Shown here piece by piece: positions 892 to 60,011 of a stretch of DNA of 64,000 nt. The DNA comes from an uncultured Bacteroidia bacterium (GTDB lineage: Bacteria; Bacteroidota; Bacteroidia; Bacteroidales; F082). Below the pieces are notes generated by a model. The model worked only from the letters and a program-made list of their open reading frames with translations. It was not told the origin of the DNA and ran no database searches. The DNA lies in the NCBI GenBank assembly GCA_902769875.1, contig CACXQV010000006.1, forward strand, positions 11,759 through 75,758, written 5' to 3'. The stretch's first letter is position 1, and every line of letters begins with the position of its first letter. Both the position numbers and the translations under genes were made by a program.

Positions 892-2406
892 TTACTTCGG
901 CACCCTGAACATCCGCTTCCAGCGTATCCCGCCGTTCTCCTTGTCCAGCGAGAGCCAAACGAGTACAGGCTTGCCAACGATGTGGTTTTCAGGCACAAAG
1001 CCCCAATAGCGCGAGTCGGCGGAGTTGTGGCGGTTGTCGCCCATCATCCAGTAGTAGTCCATCTCAAAGGTGTAGCTGTCGGCGGGCTGGCCGTCGATGT
1101 AGATTTGGTTGCCCTGCACTTTCAGGTCGTGCAGTTCGTATGCGTGGATGATGCGCTCGTAAAGTGGCAAGGTGTTGACATTCAGTGGAACCGTAACACC
1201 TTTCTTCGGGATGTAAAGCGGTCCAAAGTTGTCCACATTCCAAGGATAAAGGTCGGGGCGGTTGGGGAAAAGGCTGGTCGAAGTGCCCTCGCCCGGGGCT
1301 TGGATGTTGCGCATCACGGAGGTGACGAAAGGCAGTTTGATGAGTTCGTCGGCCACCTTTGCGCTGATGTTGAGGACGAAAATGTTCGGGTCGGCGGTGC
1401 GGTAGCCCTCGGTGATGCTGTACTTGTCCAACGTCTGCTTGTTGATGCCGCCCGAAGTGGTTACCACAGTGTAGTTATGTTGCATGTTTTCAGGCTCGTA
1501 GGCCTTCTCCCCGTTGATAAACACCACGCCGTCAACGATTTTCAAGGTGTCGCCCGGCATACCGATGAGGCGTTTCACATAGTTTTCGCGCTTATCCACG
1601 GGGTGACTGATGACATTGCCGAAATTCGCGTGGTCGTTCCAAACCTTCTTGCGGCCATATTCACGCACGAGGTCATAATAGTTGACGCTGCTTTGGAAGA
1701 TGTCGCAAACCGTGTCGCCGGCGGGATAGTTGAACACGATGGGGTCGTAACGCTTCATCGTCGAAACGCCCGGATAGCGGTGATACGGCAACTTAATCCA
1801 ATCCAAGTAGGATTTCGCGGTCTTGCTTCCTGGCAAGGTGTTGTGCACAAATGGGAACGAAAGCGGCGTGTTGGGACGCTTTGGGCCATAGTGTATCTTG
1901 CTGACAATCAGATAATCGCCAACGCAAAGCGACTTCTCCATACTCGAAGTGGGGATGGTGAAGGCCTCGAAGACGTAAGTCCTTATTATTAATGCGGCGA
2001 CTACGGCAAAAACGATGGCGTCGAACCACTCGCGGGCGGTAGATTTCTTGGGTCGCGTGGCCGTGGCGGGGTCTTGGTAAGCATCGTTTTTGGCGACGAC
2101 GGGGAAGAAAATGAAGGGCAGAATGGCCGCCATGCCTTCCTCCCAAACCTTGAATCGCCCAAAGCATTTGCCCAACTCGACGAGCATCAGCAGCAGCATA
2201 AAGACATTGATGTAAGGGAAGACGATAAAGAACCACCACCAGAATTTCTTCTCTTTGCCGATGATTTTCAGCATAATATAGATGTTGAAATAGGGGATGA
2301 GGCTGTAGTAGCCTTTTTGTCCGGCCTTCTCGAACTGTTTCCAGCAGAACGCAATCGGGATGGTGAACAATGCCGGAACGATGAAAATGAATGATAACAG
2401 TGACAT
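892..2406 (-). CDS. lepB: signal peptidase I (long Bacteroidota form with N-terminal membrane extension)
   Basis: 504 aa. Contains TIPTSSMEKSL (catalytic Ser box) and GDNRHNSADSRYWGFVPENHIVGKP (box E). Confidence 0.92.
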   Translation of the reverse strand: MSLLSFIFIVPALFTIPIAFCWKQFEKAGQKGYYSLIPYFNIYIMLKIIGKEKKFWWWFFIVFPYINVFMLLLMLVELGKCFGRFKVWEEGMAAILPFIFFPVVAKNDAYQDPATATRPKKSTAREWFDAIVFAVVAALIIRTYVFEAFTIPTSSMEKSLCVGDYLIVSKIHYGPKRPNTPLSFPFVHNTLPGSKTAKSYLDWIKLPYHRYPGVSTMKRYDPIVFNYPAGDTVCDIFQSSVNYYDLVREYGRKKVWNDHANFGNVISHPVDKRENYVKRLIGMPGDTLKIVDGVVFINGEKAYEPENMQHNYTVVTTSGGINKQTLDKYSITEGYRTADPNIFVLNISAKVADELIKLPFVTSVMRNIQAPGEGTSTSLFPNRPDLYPWNVDNFGPLYIPKKGVTVPLNVNTLPLYERIIHAYELHDLKVQGNQIYIDGQPADSYTFEMDYYWMMGDNRHNSADSRYWGFVPENHIVGKPVLVWLSLDKENGGIRWKRMFRVPK

Positions 2407-2468
2407 GTCTTTTGTTGGTTTTATTTGCTAACGAAAAAATGAAAACTATAGTATTTCGGGAACCAAAA

Positions 2469-3179
2469 TCATTCCCCGAACAAATCCTCCATCGAATAGC
2501 AACCAGTCTTCCCAAGCAAGAATTCTGCCGCAGCGATGGCGCCCAAAGCGAAGCCTTGGCGGTTGTAGGCCTCATGGGTGAGGGTGAGACGGTCGGCATC
2601 AGAGTCGGCCACAACGCTGTGGATGCCGTTCACCTCACCGATGCGGGTCACGTTTATATATAAGGTGTGGCCGGTGGGTGTGTCGATGCTCCAGTGGTCG
2701 TAGTCGTGGTTGACGCTGAGGATGTCGTTGGCCAGTTTCACGGCGGTGCCGCTGGGCTTGTCCAACTTGTGGATGTGGTGCGTTTCGGCCAACGAGAGTT
2801 GGTAGCCGTATTTCTCGGCAAGGCGGGCGAGCTGCTTGTTGAGCTTGAACATGATGTTCATCCCGATGCTGAAGTTGGGCGCGTGGAAGAGGCTTTGGCT
2901 CTCGTTGAGGCAGCGCATCTTGATTTCCTCGAAATGGTCGTGCCATGCGGTTGTGCCCACCACGACAGGGATGCGCAAGTCGAAACAGCGATGGATGTTG
3001 CCGACCACTTGGTCGGGTTGGCTGAAGTCGATGGCGACATCGGCCTGCTTCAATGGGTCGAGGCGTTCTTCCCATTCCATTGGGTTGTCGATGGTTACAA
3101 CGATTTCGTGTTGTCGGGCAAGGGCGGCTTTTTCCACCTCGTGGCCCATTTTTCCGTATCCGATTAAAGCGATTTTCAT
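2469..3179 (-). CDS. dapB: 4-hydroxy-tetrahydrodipicolinate reductase
   Basis: 236 aa. MKIALIGYGKMG Rossmann N-terminus and ETHHIHKLDKPSGTA motif typical of DapB. Confidence 0.95.
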   Translation of the reverse strand: MKIALIGYGKMGHEVEKAALARQHEIVVTIDNPMEWEERLDPLKQADVAIDFSQPDQVVGNIHRCFDLRIPVVVGTTAWHDHFEEIKMRCLNESQSLFHAPNFSIGMNIMFKLNKQLARLAEKYGYQLSLAETHHIHKLDKPSGTAVKLANDILSVNHDYDHWSIDTPTGHTLYINVTRIGEVNGIHSVVADSDADRLTLTHEAYNRQGFALGAIAAAEFLLGKTGCYSMEDLFGE

Positions 3180-49541: not shown

Positions 49542-50927
<1,386 letters not shown>

Positions 50928-51032
50928 CGGCTGCCACGGTGTGACAGCCCTACAACTTCACTCCATCAACTTTTTTCCTTTCAACAATAACCTAACCACA
51001 TCTCCCAACTCTAAACTCTCAACTCTAAACCC

Positions 51033-51479
51033 TCAACTTTTCTTATGTCCGTAAAAAATCAATGAATGATGTGTGATTTCGACGCCCAACTGCTCCTCGA
51101 TGGACCGCTGGATTTCAAGCAGTCGAGGGTCGCAAAACTCCATCACGGTCTCGGTCTCCAAGTCGATGAAATGGTCGTGTTGGCGGAATTTGTAGGAGCG
51201 TTCATATTGCGCACAGTTGTGCCCAAACTGGTGCTTGATGACCAAACCGCAATCCAACATCAGCTCGATGGTGTTATACAAGGTGGCACGACTGACGCGG
51301 TACTTGTTGTCTTTCATCTGGTTATAGAGCGTGTCGATGTCGAAGTGCCCGTTGGTCGAGTAAATCTCTTTCAGGATGGCGAACCGTTCCGGGGTCTTGC
51401 GCAACTTCTTCCGTTGGAGATAGTCAACGAATAACTTCTTGACAGACAGATAGGTGTTGTCGAACTGAGAGTCTTTCAT
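51033..51479 (-). CDS. Fur family transcriptional regulator
   Basis: 148 aa. Contains KLRKTPERFAILKEI...RVSRATLYNTIELM (winged HTH) and HHDHFIDLET. Confidence 0.82.
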   Translation of the reverse strand: MKDSQFDNTYLSVKKLFVDYLQRKKLRKTPERFAILKEIYSTNGHFDIDTLYNQMKDNKYRVSRATLYNTIELMLDCGLVIKHQFGHNCAQYERSYKFRQHDHFIDLETETVMEFCDPRLLEIQRSIEEQLGVEITHHSLIFYGHKKS

Positions 51480-51542: not shown

Positions 51543-53747
51543 TTATTTTGTTTCTGAAGTGTTTTTCCTGACCACCTTTTGGATTTCTTTCAACTGGTTC
51601 AGCTTGGCCATCAGGTTGTCCAACTCATTGGTGTTGTGGACGTAGATGGAGATGCTGGCTTCCACAAGGTCCTGCTTCGACTCCATGTGGAGCGAGTGCA
51701 TGTTGAGTTGCATTTCGTTGGAGAACAGGTTGGTCATGCGGTTGAGCAGTCCCTTGGTGTCCAAAGCGGTGATTTTCAGCTCGGCGAGGAAGGCGATTTC
51801 GCTCTTGGGCTGCCATTTGGCTTTCACGATGTTGTTGCCGTAGCGTGACGACAGCTGGATGGCTCTGGGGCAGTTGCTGCGGTGGATTTGGAGCGGCTCG
51901 CCGGGGAAGCTGAACGCGATGACGTCGTCACCGGGGATGGGATTGCAGCAGGTCGAAACATTGAAGTCGAACTCGCCTGACGAGGTGATTGACGGTGTTT
52001 CCTCCTTTTCTTTGCTGCTGTTGCCCCAAAGGCCAAAAGTGATGTAGCGGACAAAGCTGCTTCCGCCCGACTGGGGCTTCATCACGTCGCGGATGGTGCG
52101 CTCGTCGATCTTGCCAGTGGCTATCAGGTAGAAGAAGTCGATGGAACTGGTGAGGTTTTCCGTGGCCATCACCTTGTTGCGGTTGGCTTTCGAGGCCTCC
52201 AGTCCCAACTTTTTCATGGTTTCTTCAAACTTGGCCTCGCCCTCTTCGCGGAAGCTGCGCCGGTATTCCTTGATGCCGTTCTTGAGCCTCGACTTTGCCG
52301 TTGCCGTGGCCAGAAACTCAAACCATTTCTCTTGCGGGTGCTGGGCTTCTGAGGTGATGACTTCCACTTGGTCGCCATTGTGCAAAACATGGTCGAGTTG
52401 CGTGAGCTGGCTGTTGACGTTAGCCGCAATGCTGTGGTCGCCGATTTCAGAGTGGATGTTGTAGGCGAAGTCGAGCACGGTGGAGCCTTTCGGGAGCAAA
52501 ATCATCTTGCCCTGCGGGGTGAACACGTGAATCTCGTCGGAAAAGAGGTCGAGCTTGAAATTGTCGACGAATTCGATGGCGTTTTCGTTTTGGTTGCTGA
52601 TGAGGTCTTGGGCTTTCTTCAGCCAGATGTCGAAGCCGCTTTCGATGTGGTCGTCTGATTTGTATTTCCAGTAGGCCGTGAAGCCCTTTTCGGCTATTTC
52701 CTCCATGCGTTGGCTGCGGATTTGCACTTCCACCCAATTGCCCGTCTGGCCCATCACCACGGCGTGAAGGCTCTCGTAGCCATTGGTCTTTGGGAACGAA
52801 ATCCAGTCTTTTAGTTTCGAGGTGTTCGGACGATAGAAGCCCGTGAGGATGGCGTAGATTTTCCAGCATTCCAAGCGCTCTTGGTCTATGGGGCAGTCGG
52901 TGATGAAACGCACCACAAACGAGCCATAAAGCTCCTCAAACGAGAGCTCTTTGTCGAGCATCCGTTTCCAGATGGAGTTGACGGAGCGTTCCTTGAGTTC
53001 GGCACGCGCCTTGATGCCCGTCTTTTCCAACGCTTCAATGACGGGTTCGATGAAGTCGCGCATTTCGCCCATACGGCGTTCGCGCACCTCGTCCAAGCGT
53101 TTGCGGATGTTGTAGTAGATGGTCGGGTTGGTGTATTTCAGGGCAAGGTCTTCCAGCTCAATCCTGATGGCGTGGAGGCCAAGTCGGTAGGCGAGGGGGG
53201 CATAGAGGTACGACGTTTCGGATGCGATTTTCAGCTGTTTGTGCTTGGGCATCGAGTCGAGGGTGCGCATGTTGTGGAGGCGGTCGCTGAGCTTGATGAG
53301 CACCACACGCACGTCGTATGACAGCGAAGTGATGATTTTCTTGAAGTTCTCGGCCTGCATGCTTTCGGCCCCTTCCAACTTGTCGAACTTGGTGAGGCCG
53401 TCAACCACACGCGACACCTTTTCGCCGAACCTCTCGCTGATGTCGTCCAAGGTGTATTGTGTGTCTTCCACCACGTCGTGCAGCAGGGCGCAGATGATGG
53501 AAGTGCGGCCCAATCCGATGTCGTGGGCGGCGATGGTGGCCACCTCGATGGGATGGTAGATGTAGGGCTCGCCAGAGCGGCGGCGTTGGTCCTTGTGCGC
53601 GCTAACGGCGAAGTAGAAAGCCTCGTCGACGGCTTCGAGGTCTTGCGCTTCCTTGCGGGTTTGCCAAACGTCGATGAGATGCTGGTGCCGTCGCTCGATT
53701 TCTTCTTTTTCTTCCTTGGAATAGGTGTCGGGTAAAGCAGGTGTCAT
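51543..53747 (-). CDS. bifunctional (p)ppGpp synthetase/hydrolase, RelA/SpoT family
   Basis: 734 aa. HD domain (HDVVEDT), synthetase region (YESLHAVV), and TGS (VFTPQGKMILLPKGSTVLDFAY). Confidence 0.93.
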   Translation of the reverse strand: MTPALPDTYSKEEKEEIERRHQHLIDVWQTRKEAQDLEAVDEAFYFAVSAHKDQRRRSGEPYIYHPIEVATIAAHDIGLGRTSIICALLHDVVEDTQYTLDDISERFGEKVSRVVDGLTKFDKLEGAESMQAENFKKIITSLSYDVRVVLIKLSDRLHNMRTLDSMPKHKQLKIASETSYLYAPLAYRLGLHAIRIELEDLALKYTNPTIYYNIRKRLDEVRERRMGEMRDFIEPVIEALEKTGIKARAELKERSVNSIWKRMLDKELSFEELYGSFVVRFITDCPIDQERLECWKIYAILTGFYRPNTSKLKDWISFPKTNGYESLHAVVMGQTGNWVEVQIRSQRMEEIAEKGFTAYWKYKSDDHIESGFDIWLKKAQDLISNQNENAIEFVDNFKLDLFSDEIHVFTPQGKMILLPKGSTVLDFAYNIHSEIGDHSIAANVNSQLTQLDHVLHNGDQVEVITSEAQHPQEKWFEFLATATAKSRLKNGIKEYRRSFREEGEAKFEETMKKLGLEASKANRNKVMATENLTSSIDFFYLIATGKIDERTIRDVMKPQSGGSSFVRYITFGLWGNSSKEKEETPSITSSGEFDFNVSTCCNPIPGDDVIAFSFPGEPLQIHRSNCPRAIQLSSRYGNNIVKAKWQPKSEIAFLAELKITALDTKGLLNRMTNLFSNEMQLNMHSLHMESKQDLVEASISIYVHNTNELDNLMAKLNQLKEIQKVVRKNTSETK

Positions 53748-53822: not shown

Positions 53823-53830
53823 TATTTTTG
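53823..53830 (+). promoter_or_regulatory. -7 box TATTTTTG upstream of the HipA-like kinase
   Basis: TAnnTTTG match 43 nt before ATG 53873. Confidence 0.5.
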
Positions 53831-53872
53831 CGCCCACAATGAAAAACACCGGAATTTTTGCATCATAGTCCC

Positions 53873-54661
53873 ATGTCAATCCAGTTGTTAGACAGCGTAA
53901 AATCCATTGAGAGGCAATATCTTACAGGAGAGGAACCAGTTTTGGTGTTGTGCTCCGATATGAACGCTTATATATGTAAATATATGCGTTCTTCTTTTGC
54001 TGCCTACAAGTTGGCTTGTGAACTGGTTGGGGCGCAAATGGCTATGGCTTGGCATCTTGACACGCCCGAAATCGCTTTTGTGAGAATAAGGCCTTCCCAC
54101 TGGCCAAAAGGTGGACAAGCCACCTTGTCGATAGGGAGCCGGATGTTGGATGGTGTTGTCGACATTACGCCGTCAACCTATAGGGAAGTGGAATCTTCGG
54201 CCAAGACATTGACGCAGCTTTTGAGGATTGCCTTGTTTGACTTTTGGACGGCCAACGAAGACCGAAACGCCAACAATGCAAACCTTCTTTATGATGTAGA
54301 GAAAGAAGACTTGGTCTCCATTGATTATGGATGCATTTTCAACACCGCCACTTTTGAGTTTCAGTTGTCGCAATTGACCTCAACGGATACCATTCTTTAT
54401 TCCGGCTTGTTCCAATACTTGGTTCAAGACAAGTCGCGTGCCACGTTGGAAGCGATGGTCAAGCCCTTGAGATCCTATTATTTGGGCTGCCTCAACAGAT
54501 GTCGGCGACATAGTTCAGAAATGGCAAAAGCCATGCCAACAGATTGGAATGTCCCTTCTGCCTATGTCGAGAAAAAGATGGGTCAACTTTTTGAATCTGA
54601 GTGGGTTGATGGCGTTTGGAGCAATTTTATGGAATGTTTTACGGAAAATATCGGAAAATGA
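53873..54661 (+). CDS. HipA-like (PI3/4-kinase fold) small kinase
   Basis: ATG at 53873 (the track start at 53858 is TTG). FDFWTANEDRNANNANLLYD fits the D-x4-N catalytic loop. LVSIDYGCIF fits the DxG metal site. 262 aa, without HipA N-terminal domains. Confidence 0.7.
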   Translation: MSIQLLDSVKSIERQYLTGEEPVLVLCSDMNAYICKYMRSSFAAYKLACELVGAQMAMAWHLDTPEIAFVRIRPSHWPKGGQATLSIGSRMLDGVVDITPSTYREVESSAKTLTQLLRIALFDFWTANEDRNANNANLLYDVEKEDLVSIDYGCIFNTATFEFQLSQLTSTDTILYSGLFQYLVQDKSRATLEAMVKPLRSYYLGCLNRCRRHSSEMAKAMPTDWNVPSAYVEKKMGQLFESEWVDGVWSNFMECFTENIGK

Positions 54662-55029
54662 ACAGTTTAAGATATAGCATTATTTACGCGGTCATTCGTC
54701 CGGAAATCTCAGAGCAACTGAGTGTTGGGCTTATTATCGTTGACAATCAGGGCATCGAGGTGCGTCATTCTCAAAAGAAATTGAGCCTGTTGCAGGGTGT
54801 CTTTTCCGAGAAGGAATTCAAGTTCGTCTCGAAAGTAATTAATTCGTTGCATAAAAACCAAAGTGTGAATTCGGTTGAAGCTGTCAATTACCTTACGCGA
54901 TATTCCAACAATCTGATTGCGGTTTCGCCTCTGCAAACGATTGACATTGAGGCTTCTGAACAAAGCAAGAATTGGCTGTTTCGTAATTATGTTTATGATA
55001 GGACACAAAAAGTTGGCAAGCGAGCCTAA
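54658..55029 (+). CDS. DUF3037-like small protein
   Basis: ATG 54658-54660 overlaps the kinase stop TGA 54659-54661. The N-terminus LRYSIIYAVIRPEISEQLSVGLIIV resembles DUF3037 family N-termini. 123 aa. Confidence 0.6.
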   Translation: MNSLRYSIIYAVIRPEISEQLSVGLIIVDNQGIEVRHSQKKLSLLQGVFSEKEFKFVSKVINSLHKNQSVNSVEAVNYLTRYSNNLIAVSPLQTIDIEASEQSKNWLFRNYVYDRTQKVGKRA

Positions 55030-55041
55030 AGGAAGGTTAAT

Positions 55042-56829
55042 ATGAAAAACATCAGGAATTTTTGCATCATAGCGCATATCGACCACGGCAAATCGACCCT
55101 GGCCGACAGACTTTTGGAACTGACCCACACCCTGAATGACAAGGAACTCGTCGATCAGGTATTGGACGATATGGACCTCGAACGCGAGAGAGGCATCACC
55201 ATCAAGAGCCACGCCATCCAGATGAAATACAACTACAAAGGCGAGACTTATACGTTGAACCTCATCGACACTCCTGGCCATGTCGACTTCTCATACGAGG
55301 TGTCGCGAAGCATCGCGGCTTGTGAAGGCGCCCTGCTTGTGGTGGATGCCACGCAAGGCATTCAGGCACAAACGATTGCCAACCTCTATTCCGCTCTCGA
55401 ACACGACCTCGAAATCATCCCTGTGATGAACAAAATCGACATGGACAGCGCGATGGTCGACGTGGTTGAAGACCAGATGGTCGACCTTTTGGGCTGCGAC
55501 CCGAGCGAGATCCTGAAGGTGAGCGCCCGCACGGGTGAAGGCGTGCCAGCCGTTTTGGATGCCATTGTGGAGCGCATCCCTTGCCCCAAAGGCGACCCCG
55601 AAGCTCCGCTCCAAGCCCTCATTTTCGACTCGGTGTTCAATTCGTTCCGTGGCATCATTGCCTATTTCCGCGTGATGAACGGCACGATGCGAACCAACGA
55701 CTTGGTGAAGTTTTTTGCCACAGGCAAGGAGTACCACGCCGACGAAATAGGGGTGTTGCAACTGAAGCAAGTGCCTAAACAAGAGCTTTCGGCGGGCGAT
55801 GTGGGTTATATCATCTCTGGCATCAAGACCTCGAAGGAGGTCAAGGTGGGCGACACCATCACGCACGTCGAAAGGCCTTGCGCCGAGCCTGTGGAAGGCT
55901 TCGAAAACGTGAAACCGATGCTGTTTGCGGGTATCTATCCCGTGGATGCTGATGATTACGAGGAACTTAGGGCTTCGTTGGAAAAACTTCAGCTCAACGA
56001 TGCTTCCCTCGTTTGGGAGCCTGAGTCGTCGGCGGCCTTGGGCTTCGGCTTCCGTTGCGGTTTCTTGGGCTTGTTGCACATGGAAATCGTGCAGGAACGC
56101 CTCGACCGCGAGTTTGACATGGATGTCATCACTACGGTGCCTAACGTTTCGTTCAAGTGCTACAAGACCGATGGCGAGATGATTGAGGTACACAACCCCA
56201 GCGGCTTGCCCGAAGTGACCAAAATCGACCATATCGAGGAGCCTTACATCATCGCGCAAATCATTTCGAAAAACGACTTCACGGGTCCGATCATGACGCT
56301 CTGCATCGAGCGGCGCGGCGTGCTGAAAAACCAAGTCTATCTCTCCACCGACCGTGTGGAACTGACTTTCCAGATGCCGCTCTCGGAAATCGTTTTCGAC
56401 TTCTACGACAAGCTGAAATCCATCTCGAAGGGCTATGCCTCGTTTGATTACCATATTGCTGGTTATCAGGACGCTGACTTGGTGAAATTGGACATTATGC
56501 TCAACGGCGAGTCGGTGGACGCCCTCTCGACTTTGATACACCGCGCCCATGCCTACGACTTCGGTCGGCGCATGTGCGAGAAACTGAAGGAATTGATACC
56601 TCGTCACCAGTTCGACATCGCCATACAAGCCGCCATCGGCGCGAAAATCATTGCCCGCGAGACGGTGCGCCAAGTGCGCAAGGACGTGACGGCGAAGTGC
56701 TACGGCGGCGACGTGTCGCGTAAGCGCAAACTTCTTGAAAAACAGAAGGCTGGCAAGAAACGTATGCGTCAGGTCGGCAATGTCGAAGTGCCGCAGTCGG
56801 CGTTCTTGGCTGTACTGAAACTTGACTAA
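55042..56829 (+). CDS. lepA: elongation factor 4
   Basis: 595 aa. Contains [28 protein letters not shown] and NKID, with the C-terminal LepA region. Confidence 0.97.
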
Positions 56830-56835
56830 GGGTTC

Positions 56836-56935
56836 GAGCGGATTTGCAATCCGCTCATGCTGAATTGGGGATTTCAAATCCCCGTCTCGCAGCCATCGGA
56901 TTTCAAATCCGACGGAACTAAAGCCCTGAAAGGGC
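56836..56935 (+). repeat. train of four short hairpins after lepA
   Basis: GAGCGGATTtgcAATCCGCTC, GGGGATTTcAAATCCCC, TCGGATTTcAAATCCGA, GCCCtgaaaGGGC. Confidence 0.8.
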
Positions 56936-56984
56936 GAACAGAAATCAAGCAGGCGATTTTAATCCCTGCAAAACAAACAAAAAA

Positions 56985-58082
56985 ATGACCGACCTCCAAT
57001 ATCAAATAGCATTGACCCTGTTGCCCGGCATCGGCGACATCAGCGGGAAGAAATTCGTGCATTATTGCGGCAGTGCGGAGGCCATTTTCAAGGAAACTCG
57101 AAAGTCGTTGGAGAAGATTTCGGGGATGCGCGAGGCTTCCATCGAGGCTATTTGCAACCCCAAACTATATCTGAAACGCGCCGAGGAGGAAATTGCTTTC
57201 ATTGAGAAAAACGCCATCCAACCCATTTTCTTCCTCGATTCCAATTATCCGCGCCGCCTATTGCAATGCGACGACGGCCCGATGATGCTATATTATAAAG
57301 GTGCGGCCAACCTCAACGCCAACCGCGTGGTGGCCATCGTCGGGACGCGCAACATCACCGACTACGGGAAAGAAAACTGCAACCAATTGGTGGATGATTT
57401 GAAGTCTGACGATGTGTTGATTATCAGTGGTTTGGCATACGGCGTGGATACCTGTGCCCACAAAGCCTCATTGAGAAACAACATCCCGACCGTCGGGGTG
57501 ATGGGCTGCGGAATGCAACAGGTTTACCCAGCACCCAACAGGAAAGTGGCCAATGAAATGATTGAGCAGGGCGGCGGCATCCTCACCGAATGCCTCAGCG
57601 GCACCCAGCCCGACCGAGAGAATTTCCCGCGCCGCAACCGCATCATTGCGGGAATGGCGGATGCTGTGGTGGTCATTGAGTCGGCACTGAAAGGCGGCTC
57701 GCTGATCACTGCCGACATCGCCAATTCCTACAACCGCGACGTGTTTGCCTATCCCGGTCGTGTGATGGACATTTACAGCCAAGGCTGCAACTACCTCATC
57801 CGCACCAACCGCGCCCACTTGATGGAGAGTGTTTTGAACCTGCGTTATGTAATGCGTTGGGATTCAGAGTCGAAGGTTGAGAAACAAACTTCGTTGTTCC
57901 GTGAGTTCACCGAGGAAGAAAACCTCATTATGGACTGCTTCGGCGCGAGTGCTGTGGCCAATTTGGACGACATCATCGTGAAAACAGGGTTGCCGACCAC
58001 AAAAATAGCTGCATTATTACTCAATTTGGAATTTGACGGCGTGCTGATGGCAATGCCCGGAAAACGTTACCAGAAATGTTAG
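56985..58082 (+). CDS. dprA: DNA processing protein DprA/Smf
   Basis: 365 aa. Contains IVGTRNITDYG, ISGLAYGVD and GGSLITA. Confidence 0.9.
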   Translation: MTDLQYQIALTLLPGIGDISGKKFVHYCGSAEAIFKETRKSLEKISGMREASIEAICNPKLYLKRAEEEIAFIEKNAIQPIFFLDSNYPRRLLQCDDGPMMLYYKGAANLNANRVVAIVGTRNITDYGKENCNQLVDDLKSDDVLIISGLAYGVDTCAHKASLRNNIPTVGVMGCGMQQVYPAPNRKVANEMIEQGGGILTECLSGTQPDRENFPRRNRIIAGMADAVVVIESALKGGSLITADIANSYNRDVFAYPGRVMDIYSQGCNYLIRTNRAHLMESVLNLRYVMRWDSESKVEKQTSLFREFTEEENLIMDCFGASAVANLDDIIVKTGLPTTKIAALLLNLEFDGVLMAMPGKRYQKC

Positions 58083-59011
58083 GAAAAGTCATTAAATCGA
58101 CGGGCAGTTGGTACATCGTCTTGGACGGTGAAGGCCGGCAATGGGAGTGCCGACTGCGCGGAAAAATCCGTTTGGACGGCTTGCGCTCGACCAATCCCGT
58201 GGCCGTGGGCGACAACGTCGAGTTTGAGCAGGAACCCGGCAAGGATACGGGTGTAATCAAAAAGATTGAGCCACGCAATAACGTGATTGTCAGGCAGTCG
58301 GTGAATTTGAGCAAAGCCTCACACATCATCGCCGCCAACGTGGATTTGGCCATCGTGGTGGCCACCATCGCGCAACCGCGCACCTCAACGGGCTTCATCG
58401 ACCGTTTTTTGGTCACTGCCGAGGCCTACCACATTCCTGCCGCCGTCGTTTTTAACAAGTGTGACCTTTACACCGACGAGCAGATAGGTGAGATGTGCGT
58501 TCTGATGGAATATTACCAAGGCTTGGGCTACACCTCGTTTGGCGTTTCGGCCAAGACGGGCTTCCAAATGGAGGAGCTTAAAACATTGATGCAAGGGAAG
58601 ATATGCCTGTTTTCGGGCCATTCAGGCGTGGGCAAGTCAGCCTTGGTGAAAGCCCTCGACCCATCGTTGGATGTGCGCATAGGCGCGATTTCGGACTACC
58701 ACGAAAAAGGCAAGCATACCACGACTTTTGCCGAGATGCACCATCTCAGCTTCGGCGCGTGGATTGTCGACACGCCGGGCATCAAGGAGTTTGTGCTGTA
58801 TGATATGGAGAAAGACACCTTGGCCCAGCGTTTTCCTGAGATGCGCGAGCTGATGAGCGAGTGCCGTTTCGCCAATTGCACCCACACCCACGAACCCGGT
58901 TGCGCCGTGAAGGCCGCCGTCGAAAATGGCGATATCGCCGACTGGCGTTACATCAATTACCTTCGCATGATGACCGACGAGAGCCACGAATCGGTGAAGG
59001 AAGAAGGATAG
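58076..59011 (+). CDS. rsgA: ribosome small subunit-dependent GTPase A
   Basis: 311 aa. Contains VFNKCDL, GHSGVGKSAL, DTPG and the zinc motif CRFANCTHTHEPGC. 7-nt overlap with dprA. Confidence 0.92.
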   Translation: MLGKVIKSTGSWYIVLDGEGRQWECRLRGKIRLDGLRSTNPVAVGDNVEFEQEPGKDTGVIKKIEPRNNVIVRQSVNLSKASHIIAANVDLAIVVATIAQPRTSTGFIDRFLVTAEAYHIPAAVVFNKCDLYTDEQIGEMCVLMEYYQGLGYTSFGVSAKTGFQMEELKTLMQGKICLFSGHSGVGKSALVKALDPSLDVRIGAISDYHEKGKHTTTFAEMHHLSFGAWIVDTPGIKEFVLYDMEKDTLAQRFPEMRELMSECRFANCTHTHEPGCAVKAAVENGDIADWRYINYLRMMTDESHESVKEEG

Positions 59012-59012
59012 A

Positions 59013-59077
59013 ACAGTGGGGTATGCCCCACTGTCATGGATAGAAAGAAAAAGGACAACGGGGCATGCCCCGTTGTC
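59013..59077 (+). repeat. two palindromes sharing the core GGGG(C/T)ATGCCCC after rsgA
   Basis: ACAGTGGGGTATGCCCCACTGT (59013-59034) and GACAACGGGGCATGCCCCGTTGTC (59054-59077, a perfect 24-mer palindrome). Confidence 0.85.
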
Positions 59078-59102
59078 TTTACCAGACGAAAAAATAAAAA
59101 CT

Positions 59103-59975
59103 ATGACCATCGCCCTATTTGGAAAAAACATCGCCCCTGAAAATGGGGAATATATGCGCCAACTGTTTGCCGAATTGGCTGGCAATCAGGTGGAAATCGT
59201 TGTTTACCAGCCTTTTGCCGATATTGTCGCGGCATTTGTCCCCGAAGGCATAAAATACAGCGTATTCACTTCCTATGCCGACTTGGAAGCCGAAATGCTG
59301 TTTTCCATCGGCGGCGACGGCACGATTTTGGACACGGTTCCATTCGTCCGCGATTCGGGAATGCCTGTGTTGGGCATCAACATGGGGCGCTTGGGCTTTC
59401 TTTCCAGCATCTCGAAAAACGAGATTGGTGTGGCGGTGAAAAGCGTGCTGGCGGGTGATTATGCCGTCGAGCAGCGCACCCTTTTGGAATTGGTTGCGCC
59501 TGAAAACGTTTTTGGCGATGTGCGCTATGCCCTCAATGAACTGAACGTCATCCGTAACCCTGAACACAGTTTGTTGGCTATCAAGGTCTTCGTCGATGAT
59601 GTTTATCTCAACACCTATTGGGGCGACGGCATCCTTTTGGCCACTCCCACTGGCTCTACGGCCTATTCGCTGAGCGCGGGCGGCCCCATCATTGCGCCGA
59701 ATGCGAAGAATTTCGTCATCACGCCCATCGCCACTCACAATCTGACCGTCCGTCCCGTTGTCATTCCTGACGACAGCGCGATTCGCATCCAAGTGGAAGG
59801 GCGCGAGCGGAAATTCGTGTTCAGTATGGACTCAAGGAATTGCACCTTAGACACTTCCGTGCAGCTCGAAGTGCGCAAGGCCACTTTCTGTCTCAACTTG
59901 GCGAGGATGCGTGGCGAGGACTTTTTCGGCACCATTCGCAACAAATTGATGTGGGGAAAAGACAATAGAAATTGA
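59103..59975 (+). CDS. nadK: NAD kinase
   Basis: ATG at 59103 (MTIALFGK...). Contains SIGGDGTIL, NMGRLGFL and TPTGSTAYSLSAGGPI. Confidence 0.9.
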   Translation: MTIALFGKNIAPENGEYMRQLFAELAGNQVEIVVYQPFADIVAAFVPEGIKYSVFTSYADLEAEMLFSIGGDGTILDTVPFVRDSGMPVLGINMGRLGFLSSISKNEIGVAVKSVLAGDYAVEQRTLLELVAPENVFGDVRYALNELNVIRNPEHSLLAIKVFVDDVYLNTYWGDGILLATPTGSTAYSLSAGGPIIAPNAKNFVITPIATHNLTVRPVVIPDDSAIRIQVEGRERKFVFSMDSRNCTLDTSVQLEVRKATFCLNLARMRGEDFFGTIRNKLMWGKDNRN

Positions 59976-60003
59976 TTTCTGTCGTTTTCATTGGAAAAAT
60001 TCC

Positions 60004-60011
60004 TAAATTTG
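60004..60011 (+). promoter_or_regulatory. -7 box TAAATTTG upstream of the DUF6089-like gene
   Basis: TAnnTTTG match 13 nt before ATG 60024. Confidence 0.45.

Follow-up and report, generated by a model that had tools for sequence, protein, structure and literature searches.

A HipA-like kinase paired with a DUF3037-domain-only protein in rumen and gut Bacteroidales, a probable toxin-antitoxin-style anti-phage module

HipA-like kinases are strongly associated with DUF3037 proteins, and PADLOC labels the pair PDC-M66, a phage-defence candidate (PMC12548924). Within the Retron-Sda1 operon the HipA-like/DUF3037 genes act as a stand-alone defence module for which the retron components are dispensable; deletion of the kinase removes defence against phage Bas51, and deletion of the DUF3037 gene is toxic (PMC12548924). 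A related system from E. coli, DS-6, was validated by DefensePredictor and renamed HipAD, and was found independently by Brenes & Laub 2025 (PMC13092281). Its kinase, DS-6A, loses phage defence when the catalytic residue is mutated (D139A), and AlphaFold3 predicts a DS-6A:DS-6B complex, with a contact between DS-6B and DNA predicted more weakly (PMC13092281). Here we describe two overlapping genes of this kind in a stretch of 64,000 nucleotides (nt) from an uncultured Bacteroidales bacterium (contig CACXQV010000006.1), referred to as the window. By homology, the locus is probably a HipA-like kinase/DUF3037 toxin-antitoxin-style anti-phage module of the same kind as PDC-M66 and DS-6/HipAD. It comprises the following features, with protein lengths in amino acids (aa).

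53873..54661, plus strand: gene 1, ATG start and TGA stop, encoding a 262-aa HipA_2-family Ser/Thr-type kinase, the presumed toxin/effector
54658..55029, plus strand: gene 2, ATG start and TAA stop, encoding a divergent protein of 123 aa with only the DUF3037 domain, presumed to be the antitoxin that neutralises the kinase
54658..54661, plus strand: ATGA overlap, in which the kinase stop codon is shared with the gene 2 start codon (translational coupling)

The coordinates, lengths and ATGA overlap of both reading frames had been given in an earlier reading of this DNA (the original prediction) and were all confirmed. Homologue N-termini match both annotated ATG starts in alignment, and the whole window holds one copy of each gene. 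The original prediction also called the pair undescribed, a claim that had to be dropped: it is the pair known as PDC-M66 in PADLOC, as the Retron-Sda1 module (PMC12548924) and as DS-6/HipAD (PMC13092281), and the HipA-like/DUF3037 system itself was already described between 2023 and 2026. New, as far as we found in the literature, are the variant with a short partner made of the DUF3037 domain only and its distribution in Bacteroidales.

The sequences of DS-6A (WP_000389051.1) and DS-6B (WP_000210934.1) were taken from the supplement of PMC13092281 and compared directly with the window pair. The kinases are homologous. An hhalign comparison of the kinase family profile with DS-6A covers 204 columns at a probability of 96.8% and an expect value (E) of 3e-10, and BLASTP of gene 1 against DS-6A (E = 6e-10) aligns D130 with D139, the essential Asp of DS-6A that is conserved in gene 1. 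Both kinases are short (249 aa in DS-6A and 262 aa in gene 1) and carry no HipA N-terminal domains, and both systems place the kinase first with a 4-nt overlap (DS-6A at 2415-3164 and DS-6B at 1591-2418, minus strand). The DUF3037 domain of DS-6B aligns over its full length with the gene 2 family profile, although at a probability of only 54.6% (hhalign, DS-6B residues 4-129, 116 columns, E = 1.2e-4); this tentative link agrees with the Pfam DUF3037 matches among gene 2 relatives. In size, however, the partners differ: the 275-aa DS-6B joins DUF3037 (residues 7-125) to a DUF1829-like C-terminal half (163-260) with predicted DNA contacts, whereas the 123-aa gene 2 protein is without that half. 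The alignment between them ends at DS-6B residue 129 of 275, and gene 2 ends where DUF3037 ends. The systems also differ in that the partners resemble each other at profile level only, that the kinases share 26% identity in the BLASTP alignment, and that DS-6/HipAD comes from E. coli whereas the window cassette sits in a core-gene islet of a rumen/gut Bacteroidales.

With PDC-M66 the window pair shares the two-gene HipA-like plus DUF3037 composition. Gene 1 matches PDC-M66A (E = 6.6e-8, 30.1 bits), with partial coverage (gene 1 residues 20-152 against positions 27-169 of the 270 in the model), whereas neither gene 2 nor any of the 52 members of its short family is matched by PDC-M66B. In Retron-Sda1 the need for the kinase in defence and the toxicity of DUF3037 loss follow the logic proposed here for the window pair. 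The two settings differ in that no retron reverse transcriptase or non-coding RNA lies near the window pair, and in that the C-terminus of the Retron-Sda1 partner resembles a retron DNA-binding protein whereas gene 2 is without such a region.

More distant kin are hipBA (HipA/HipB) and HipBST/HipT. The window pair has in common with them the PI3/4-kinase-like Ser/Thr kinase fold, a D-x4-N loop that lines up, and the logic of a kinase toxin restrained by a small co-encoded protein. HipA/HipT targets are GltX/TrpS. Canonical hipBA differs on several counts. Gene 1 is without Couple_hipA/HipA_C matches and N-terminal domains and is 262 aa long against 440 aa for HipA, no helix-turn-helix (HTH) antitoxin (HipB) lies upstream, and the partner is encoded downstream; the gene 2 fold, in addition, is without a match among solved structures. 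The window pair falls outside canonical HipBA as marked by HipA N-terminal plus HipA_C domains and an upstream HTH gene. This agrees with the kinase-first order and the non-HTH partner originally described for the locus, since the upstream gene is the divergent relA/spoT and a Pfam search with gene 2 gave no HTH family match.

Gene 1 is matched by Pfam HipA_2 (PF20613) at 60.5 bits (E = 2e-16), above the gathering threshold of 27 bits. The match runs over residues 20-229, equivalent to positions 13-210 of the 240 in the model, and is the sole significant Pfam match of the protein; PF20613 is found in 120/120 among the gene 1 homologues listed. There is also a weak Pfam PI3_PI4_kinase match on the catalytic loop. 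Neither Pfam nor NCBIfam gave gene 1 a match to the HipA N-terminal (Couple_hipA/HipA_N) or HipA_C families, and NCBIfam offered a model for neither gene 1 nor gene 2. The segments FDFWTANEDRNANNANLLYD and LVSIDYGCIF, in which the D-x4-N loop and the DxG motif had been read, are both present, and K36, E50, D130, N135 and D151 are invariant across 24 homologues down to 56% identity. A further match links gene 1 to phrog_3162 (E = 1.7e-24). The HipA alignment, which is not significant, was used solely to name equivalents (D130 as HipA D309 and N135 as HipA N314).

The AlphaFold2 model of gene 1 has a predicted local distance difference test score (pLDDT) of 84.5 and a predicted template-modelling score (pTM) of 0.87. 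Searched with Foldseek, it matches PI3K/PI4K, the HipA proteins of Shewanella and E. coli, CotH and CtkA (E of about 2e-4 to 5e-3, template-modelling (TM) score of about 0.5); the gene 1 sequence and the gene 1 profile gave chance-level matches only against PDB chains. Judged from its motifs and its model, gene 1 holds every part of a kinase core, namely the ATP-binding Lys, the D-x4-N loop, the metal-binding DxG and the kinase fold, and its intact active site predicts catalytic competence. Gene 1 belongs to the broad HipA/PI3-4-kinase fold group and to Pfam HipA_2, and is not a canonical HipA. The HipA-like kinase without HipA N-terminal domains that had been proposed is thus borne out, catalytic motifs included.

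The proposed likeness of gene 2 to DUF3037 stood by way of its relatives and fell short on the protein's own score. Against Pfam PF11236 gene 2 reaches 16.1 bits (E = 0.013), below the 22.6-bit cut-off, with the match spanning model positions 1-118 of 118. DUF3037 is matched by 23 of the 52 short-family members (E <= 0.05; best 4.4e-6) and is the only Pfam family to reach more than two of them. The 510 close homologues of gene 2 are about 120 aa long throughout and come from metagenomes of rumen/gut Bacteroidales; not one of them has a Pfam domain in its precomputed annotation. Searching 1.84 billion representative proteins with the gene 2 family profile returned 306 matches, many of which are 270-290-aa proteins bearing the gene 2 domain N-terminally. 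These long relatives are matched by DUF3037 in 12/56 cases (best E = 8e-6) and by PDC-M66B in 1/56 (E = 9e-4). The reading that suits this transitive evidence best is that gene 2 represents a divergent sister group, or an outlier, of the DUF3037 family.

The gene 2 structure was modelled by AlphaFold2 at a pLDDT of 86.8. Foldseek against the PDB found no solved counterpart (best E = 0.19, TM score <0.3), and the HORMA and MHC matches in that search were rejected as noise; the gene 2 profile likewise gave only chance-level matches to PDB chains. The best match in BFVD is A0A6J5NRF1, a 125-aa protein of an uncultured Caudovirales phage (TM score 0.76, E = 1e-7), and phage proteins of 261-287 aa match more weakly. 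Short and long DUF3037-like forms in phages imply that both forms exist elsewhere.

Some smaller features of the gene 2 family were seen along the way. Two R-[YH]-S motifs occur at residues 36-38 and 81-83 (VRHSQKKL and TRYSNNL). Ser38 is the sole invariant residue in 52 gene 2 family members, down to 26% identity, and stands opposite a DS-6B Thr in the hhalign alignment; that it might serve as a kinase pseudo-substrate or phospho-acceptor site is speculation. Positions 130-203 of the PADLOC model for ZorE, the Zorya type II HNH endonuclease, weakly match 9/52 family members (best E = 7e-5; window gene 2, E = 0.0067). These matches, at family residues 33-106, could reflect a shared non-catalytic domain or chance and were not used as evidence.

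The kinase and gene 2 are obligately linked. A scan of species-representative genomes with the gene 2 profile found 43 loci, all in Bacteroidales; one at a contig end (L032) was excluded, and the 42 informative gene-2-anchored loci were searched with hidden Markov models (HMMs) of both families. An intact kinase lies directly upstream of gene 2 in 29 of the 42, a kinase remnant with internal deletions or frameshifts in seven, and no kinase detectable by HMM in six. Five remnants retain residues 1-35, 1-62 plus 227-265, 1-55 plus 232-265, 226-265 and 2-21, one has a catalytic-region deletion and one is multiply frameshifted; at L054 the loss is confined to the catalytic region (profile positions 115-179). 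In at least four of the six HMM-negative loci a scrap of the first ~24 or last ~14 kinase codons can be recognised by eye, usually with the TAnnTTTG promoter element. Independent kinase deletion scars upstream of an intact gene 2 occur at L022, L023, L029, L038, L050, L054 and L057, and also at L024, L042, L055 and L056. What typically survives is the promoter with 20-60 codons from the start of the kinase, or 14-40 codons from its end that run into the gene 2 start, or both. Gene 2 itself is intact in 12 of the 13 kinase-less loci, the exception being L059 with a match to residues 33-115 only, and an identical 120-aa gene 2 protein is seen both with and without a kinase.

Scanning metagenome contigs the other way round, with the kinase as anchor, yielded 80 loci, 78 of them with room downstream. 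Gene 2 directly follows the kinase in 78/78 and a lone kinase was found in 0/78. Set against the 13 kinase-less loci of the 42 anchored on gene 2, this is an asymmetry with p = 3e-7 in Fisher's exact test, on two samples drawn from different collections. Across 102 non-identical pairs the gene 2 ATG always lies within -20 to +9 nt of the kinase stop, and a 274-aa long-form relative of gene 2 is likewise preceded by a HipA_2 kinase, which it overlaps by 4 nt. Whether the pairing is conserved had been posed as a check, and on these counts it is. Toxin-first erosion is a documented pattern of chromosomal type II toxin-antitoxin modules (PMC13617665). A kinase never seen without its partner, together with a partner that often outlives its kinase, points to the same order of loss here. 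The absence of partnerless kinases (0/78), set beside kinase-less partners with deletion scars (13/42), supports toxin-antitoxin logic independently of the published assays.

Two loci of another type (L141 and L142, with the long-form relative P0299) carry a 279-aa DUF3037-like gene with no HipA_2 gene called in the 400-nt gap upstream. Their surroundings are rich in toxin-antitoxin/defence genes, with a HigB-like toxin plus HTH_3 pair and a DUF4411 plus Peptidase_M78 pair as neighbours.

In the window the pair lies between two core genes and is preceded by a putative promoter and by a partial copy of the downstream gene.

51543..53747, minus strand: relA/spoT, the upstream flank, divergent from gene 1
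53823..53830, plus strand: Bacteroidetes-type -7 element TATTTTTG (TAnnTTTG), an exact match 43 nt before the kinase ATG and a putative promoter
53840..53868, plus strand: 'ghost' of the start of lepA, out of frame (ATGAAAAACACCGGAATTTTTGCATCATAG), in direct repeat with 55042-55072 (27 nt, 85% identity)
55042..56829, plus strand: lepA (EF4), the downstream flank and a context gene, starting 12 nt past the gene 2 stop

The intergenic region between relA/spoT and gene 1 measures 125 nt. The islet has a G+C content (GC) of 0.40-0.48 and its flanks one of 0.52-0.58; at third codon positions (GC3) the value is 0.51 in gene 1 and 0.47 in gene 2 against 0.66-0.77 in relA, lepA, dprA, rsgA, purA and fur. 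The composition of both genes is foreign-looking, and these contrasts uphold the AT-richer islet between relA/spoT and lepA that was originally noted. At least seven species-level genomes share the relA-lepA position of the cassette. In this clade the kinase protein is 71-81% identical to that of the window, the gene 2 protein 86-94%, LepA 97-99% and RelA 84-87%. Most other Bacteroidales carry the pair in unrelated surroundings, such as next to UbiA, ClpB, TPR or LRR genes. Of the 43 gene-2-anchored genome loci, only 7 have lepA nearby.

The TAnnTTTG element had been read as the pair's own promoter. An equivalent lies 35-43 nt before the kinase ATG in 15 of the 15 relatives inspected, irrespective of the sequence further upstream, and because it is kept whatever lies beyond, the putative promoter appears to belong to and travel with the cassette. 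An ancestral lepA promoter, as the ghost lepA start just after the element might suggest, was rejected as its origin: the element is kept with the kinase in relatives that have no ghost copy (L008-L021, L058 and L060-L065). The lepA copy of the repeat, ATGAAAAACATCAGGAATTTTTGCATCATAG at 55042-55072, holds the first ~30 nt of lepA including the start codon. Both copies contain the exact 18-mer GGAATTTTTGCATCATAG, and a 1-nt indel throws the upstream copy out of frame. The direct repeat brackets the cassette, and recombination between its copies would excise the pair precisely and bring lepA directly after the cassette promoter. Relatives L008-L021 have the same 12 nt between gene 2 and lepA. 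On the plus strand no terminator-like site lies from 53830 to 55042, a range that includes the gap between gene 2 and lepA, and no exact TAnnTTTG from 53830 to 60004. Together these absences suggest that lepA, and possibly dprA and rsgA, could be read from the cassette promoter; lepA is probably co-transcribed with the pair.

We propose that gene 1 acts as a growth-arresting effector in the form of a compact HipA_2-family kinase. The gene 2 protein, made by translational coupling at the ATGA overlap, would bind the kinase and hold it inactive. Should phage infection, the likeliest trigger, or some other event displace, deplete or otherwise act on the partner, the freed kinase could phosphorylate an essential host target, which by analogy with HipA might be a translation component such as an aminoacyl-tRNA synthetase. 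Growth would then stop and the infection would be aborted. The window copy would be a minimal variant, with a DUF3037-domain-only partner, a core-gene site and probable transcription with lepA. HipB-style autoregulation is not assumed, since gene 2 is without a DNA-binding-like domain. Toxicity, neutralisation by direct binding, a phage trigger and the nature of the kinase target are inferred for this locus. The toxin-antitoxin or defence-type role originally suggested for the pair fits both the kinase-first decay asymmetry and the published experiments on homologues. Toxin-antitoxin/defence-type neighbours, NTP_transf_2 and HEPN genes, found in the relA-lepA gap of relatives were also counted in favour of the proposed module.

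Several results weigh against it. Kinase-dependent defence and partner-loss toxicity were shown on homologues from outside Bacteroidales and not on the window pair. The hhalign probability that ties gene 2 to DS-6B is low, the DUF3037 score of gene 2 is below threshold, and since the C-terminal domain present in the validated partner is missing from gene 2, sensing, regulation or neutralisation may work differently here. PDC-M66B matches neither gene 2 at E <= 10 nor any of the 52 short-family members at E <= 0.05, so PADLOC would not call this locus. On the kinase side, fold searches put gene 1 no nearer HipA than PI3K/PI4K, and an hhalign comparison of the kinase family with E. coli HipA gave E = 0.23 over 27 columns of the catalytic loop only. 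Because the fold is no closer to HipA and this alignment is not significant alone, a HipA-like target is only an analogy. No defence island surrounds the cassette within the window, and its inheritance at one relA-lepA position in at least seven species looks more stable than that of many defence genes. A tblastn search of 50,697 phage genomes with the kinase, and a pattern scan across IMG/VR contigs, found no relatives; because these scans came back empty, the phrog_3162 and phrog_5137 matches are taken to reflect more distant phage relatives.

Some of these points would suit a purely selfish addiction module, a kinase/neutraliser toxin-antitoxin pair with no anti-phage role in these Bacteroidales, which persists as gene 2-first loss is lethal and decays through kinase loss. 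Such a module is compatible with all of the comparative data. Kinase-first decay with the partner intact in 13/42 species genomes is what it would leave behind, and the placement as an islet among core genes, the absence of a defence island from the window and the lack of phage-borne relatives in the scans all suit it. It also fits the largely selfish character reported for chromosomal toxin-antitoxin islets of this type (PMC13617665). We nevertheless consider it unlikely as the whole explanation, given that two independent homologous systems give kinase-dependent phage protection and that an intact pair kept at one locus in at least seven species, with invariant catalytic residues, suggests selection for function. 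The selfish and defence readings are, moreover, not mutually exclusive.

The position between relA/spoT and lepA raises the alternative of a housekeeping signalling pair that regulates translation or the stringent response with lepA (EF4) and relA/spoT and is not a toxin system. The order relA-kinase-gene 2-lepA is kept in a clade of species, lepA lies 12 nt past gene 2 with neither a terminator-like site nor a separate TAnnTTTG between them, and the survival of gene 2 after kinase loss could mean a role of its own. Elsewhere, however, the pair stands beside UbiA, ClpB, TPR or LRR genes, with lepA rarely nearby. The GC3 of both genes is far under that of the core neighbours, repeated kinase deletion is unexpected for a housekeeping regulator, and the homologues are validated defence toxins; a housekeeping role is thus very unlikely. 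A functional link to relA/lepA as the main explanation was rejected on the grounds that most other genomes carry the pair in unrelated contexts. Nor is gene 2 at all likely to be the principal functional gene, acting for instance as anti-kinase immunity against HipA_2 kinases of phages or mobile elements, with the kinase a dispensable accessory. Orphan gene 2 copies are full length, score equal to paired ones and in many cases still have the cassette promoter together with the first kinase codons. Within the relA-lepA clade, conservation is higher in gene 2 than in the kinase, and the gene 2 protein has the same predicted fold as the stand-alone 125-aa phage protein. Yet no intact kinase occurs without gene 2 (0/78) and both are kept in 29/42 loci, which indicates that the ancestral functional unit was the pair. 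For the orphans an independent use is conceivable, but they may equally well be passive leftovers of toxin-first decay.

Returning to the proposed anti-phage module, its interest lies in range and in partner architecture. HipA-like plus DUF3037 systems were only recently validated as anti-phage, and this locus extends their range to rumen/gut Bacteroidales, whose versions escape the PADLOC models owing to a partner that has diverged too far. A partner naturally reduced to DUF3037 is a handy construct for asking which partner region neutralises the kinase. A bolder idea, about which we are doubtful, is that DUF3037 alone might be the full neutralising, possibly phage-sensing, unit, with the C-terminal half of DS-6B dispensable; expressed orphan gene 2 would then give immunity against HipA_2 kinases of phages or mobile elements, and Ser38 might be the pseudo-substrate. 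The overall picture of HipA-like/DUF3037 systems is unchanged by this locus, and no long-standing question becomes newly testable.

The relA-lepA gap forms a small, variable islet of toxin-antitoxin/defence type, and in the window only the kinase pair is left of it. In close relatives L008-L016 (for example L008:2953-4946 and L009:4117-4945) the distance from relA to the kinase is ~1.2 kb longer than in the window, and in the added sequence lies either an NTP_transf_2 (MNT-like) or a HEPN gene, along with a fragment of Por_Secre_tail. Beyond relA/spoT, the purA-fur intergenic region carries a tandem repeat of the heptamer ATTTCAG at 50827-50926 (13.6 copies, alternatively read as 22- and 29-nt units), and a second short repeat, (AACTCTA)n at 51002-51038, adjoins the fur stop.

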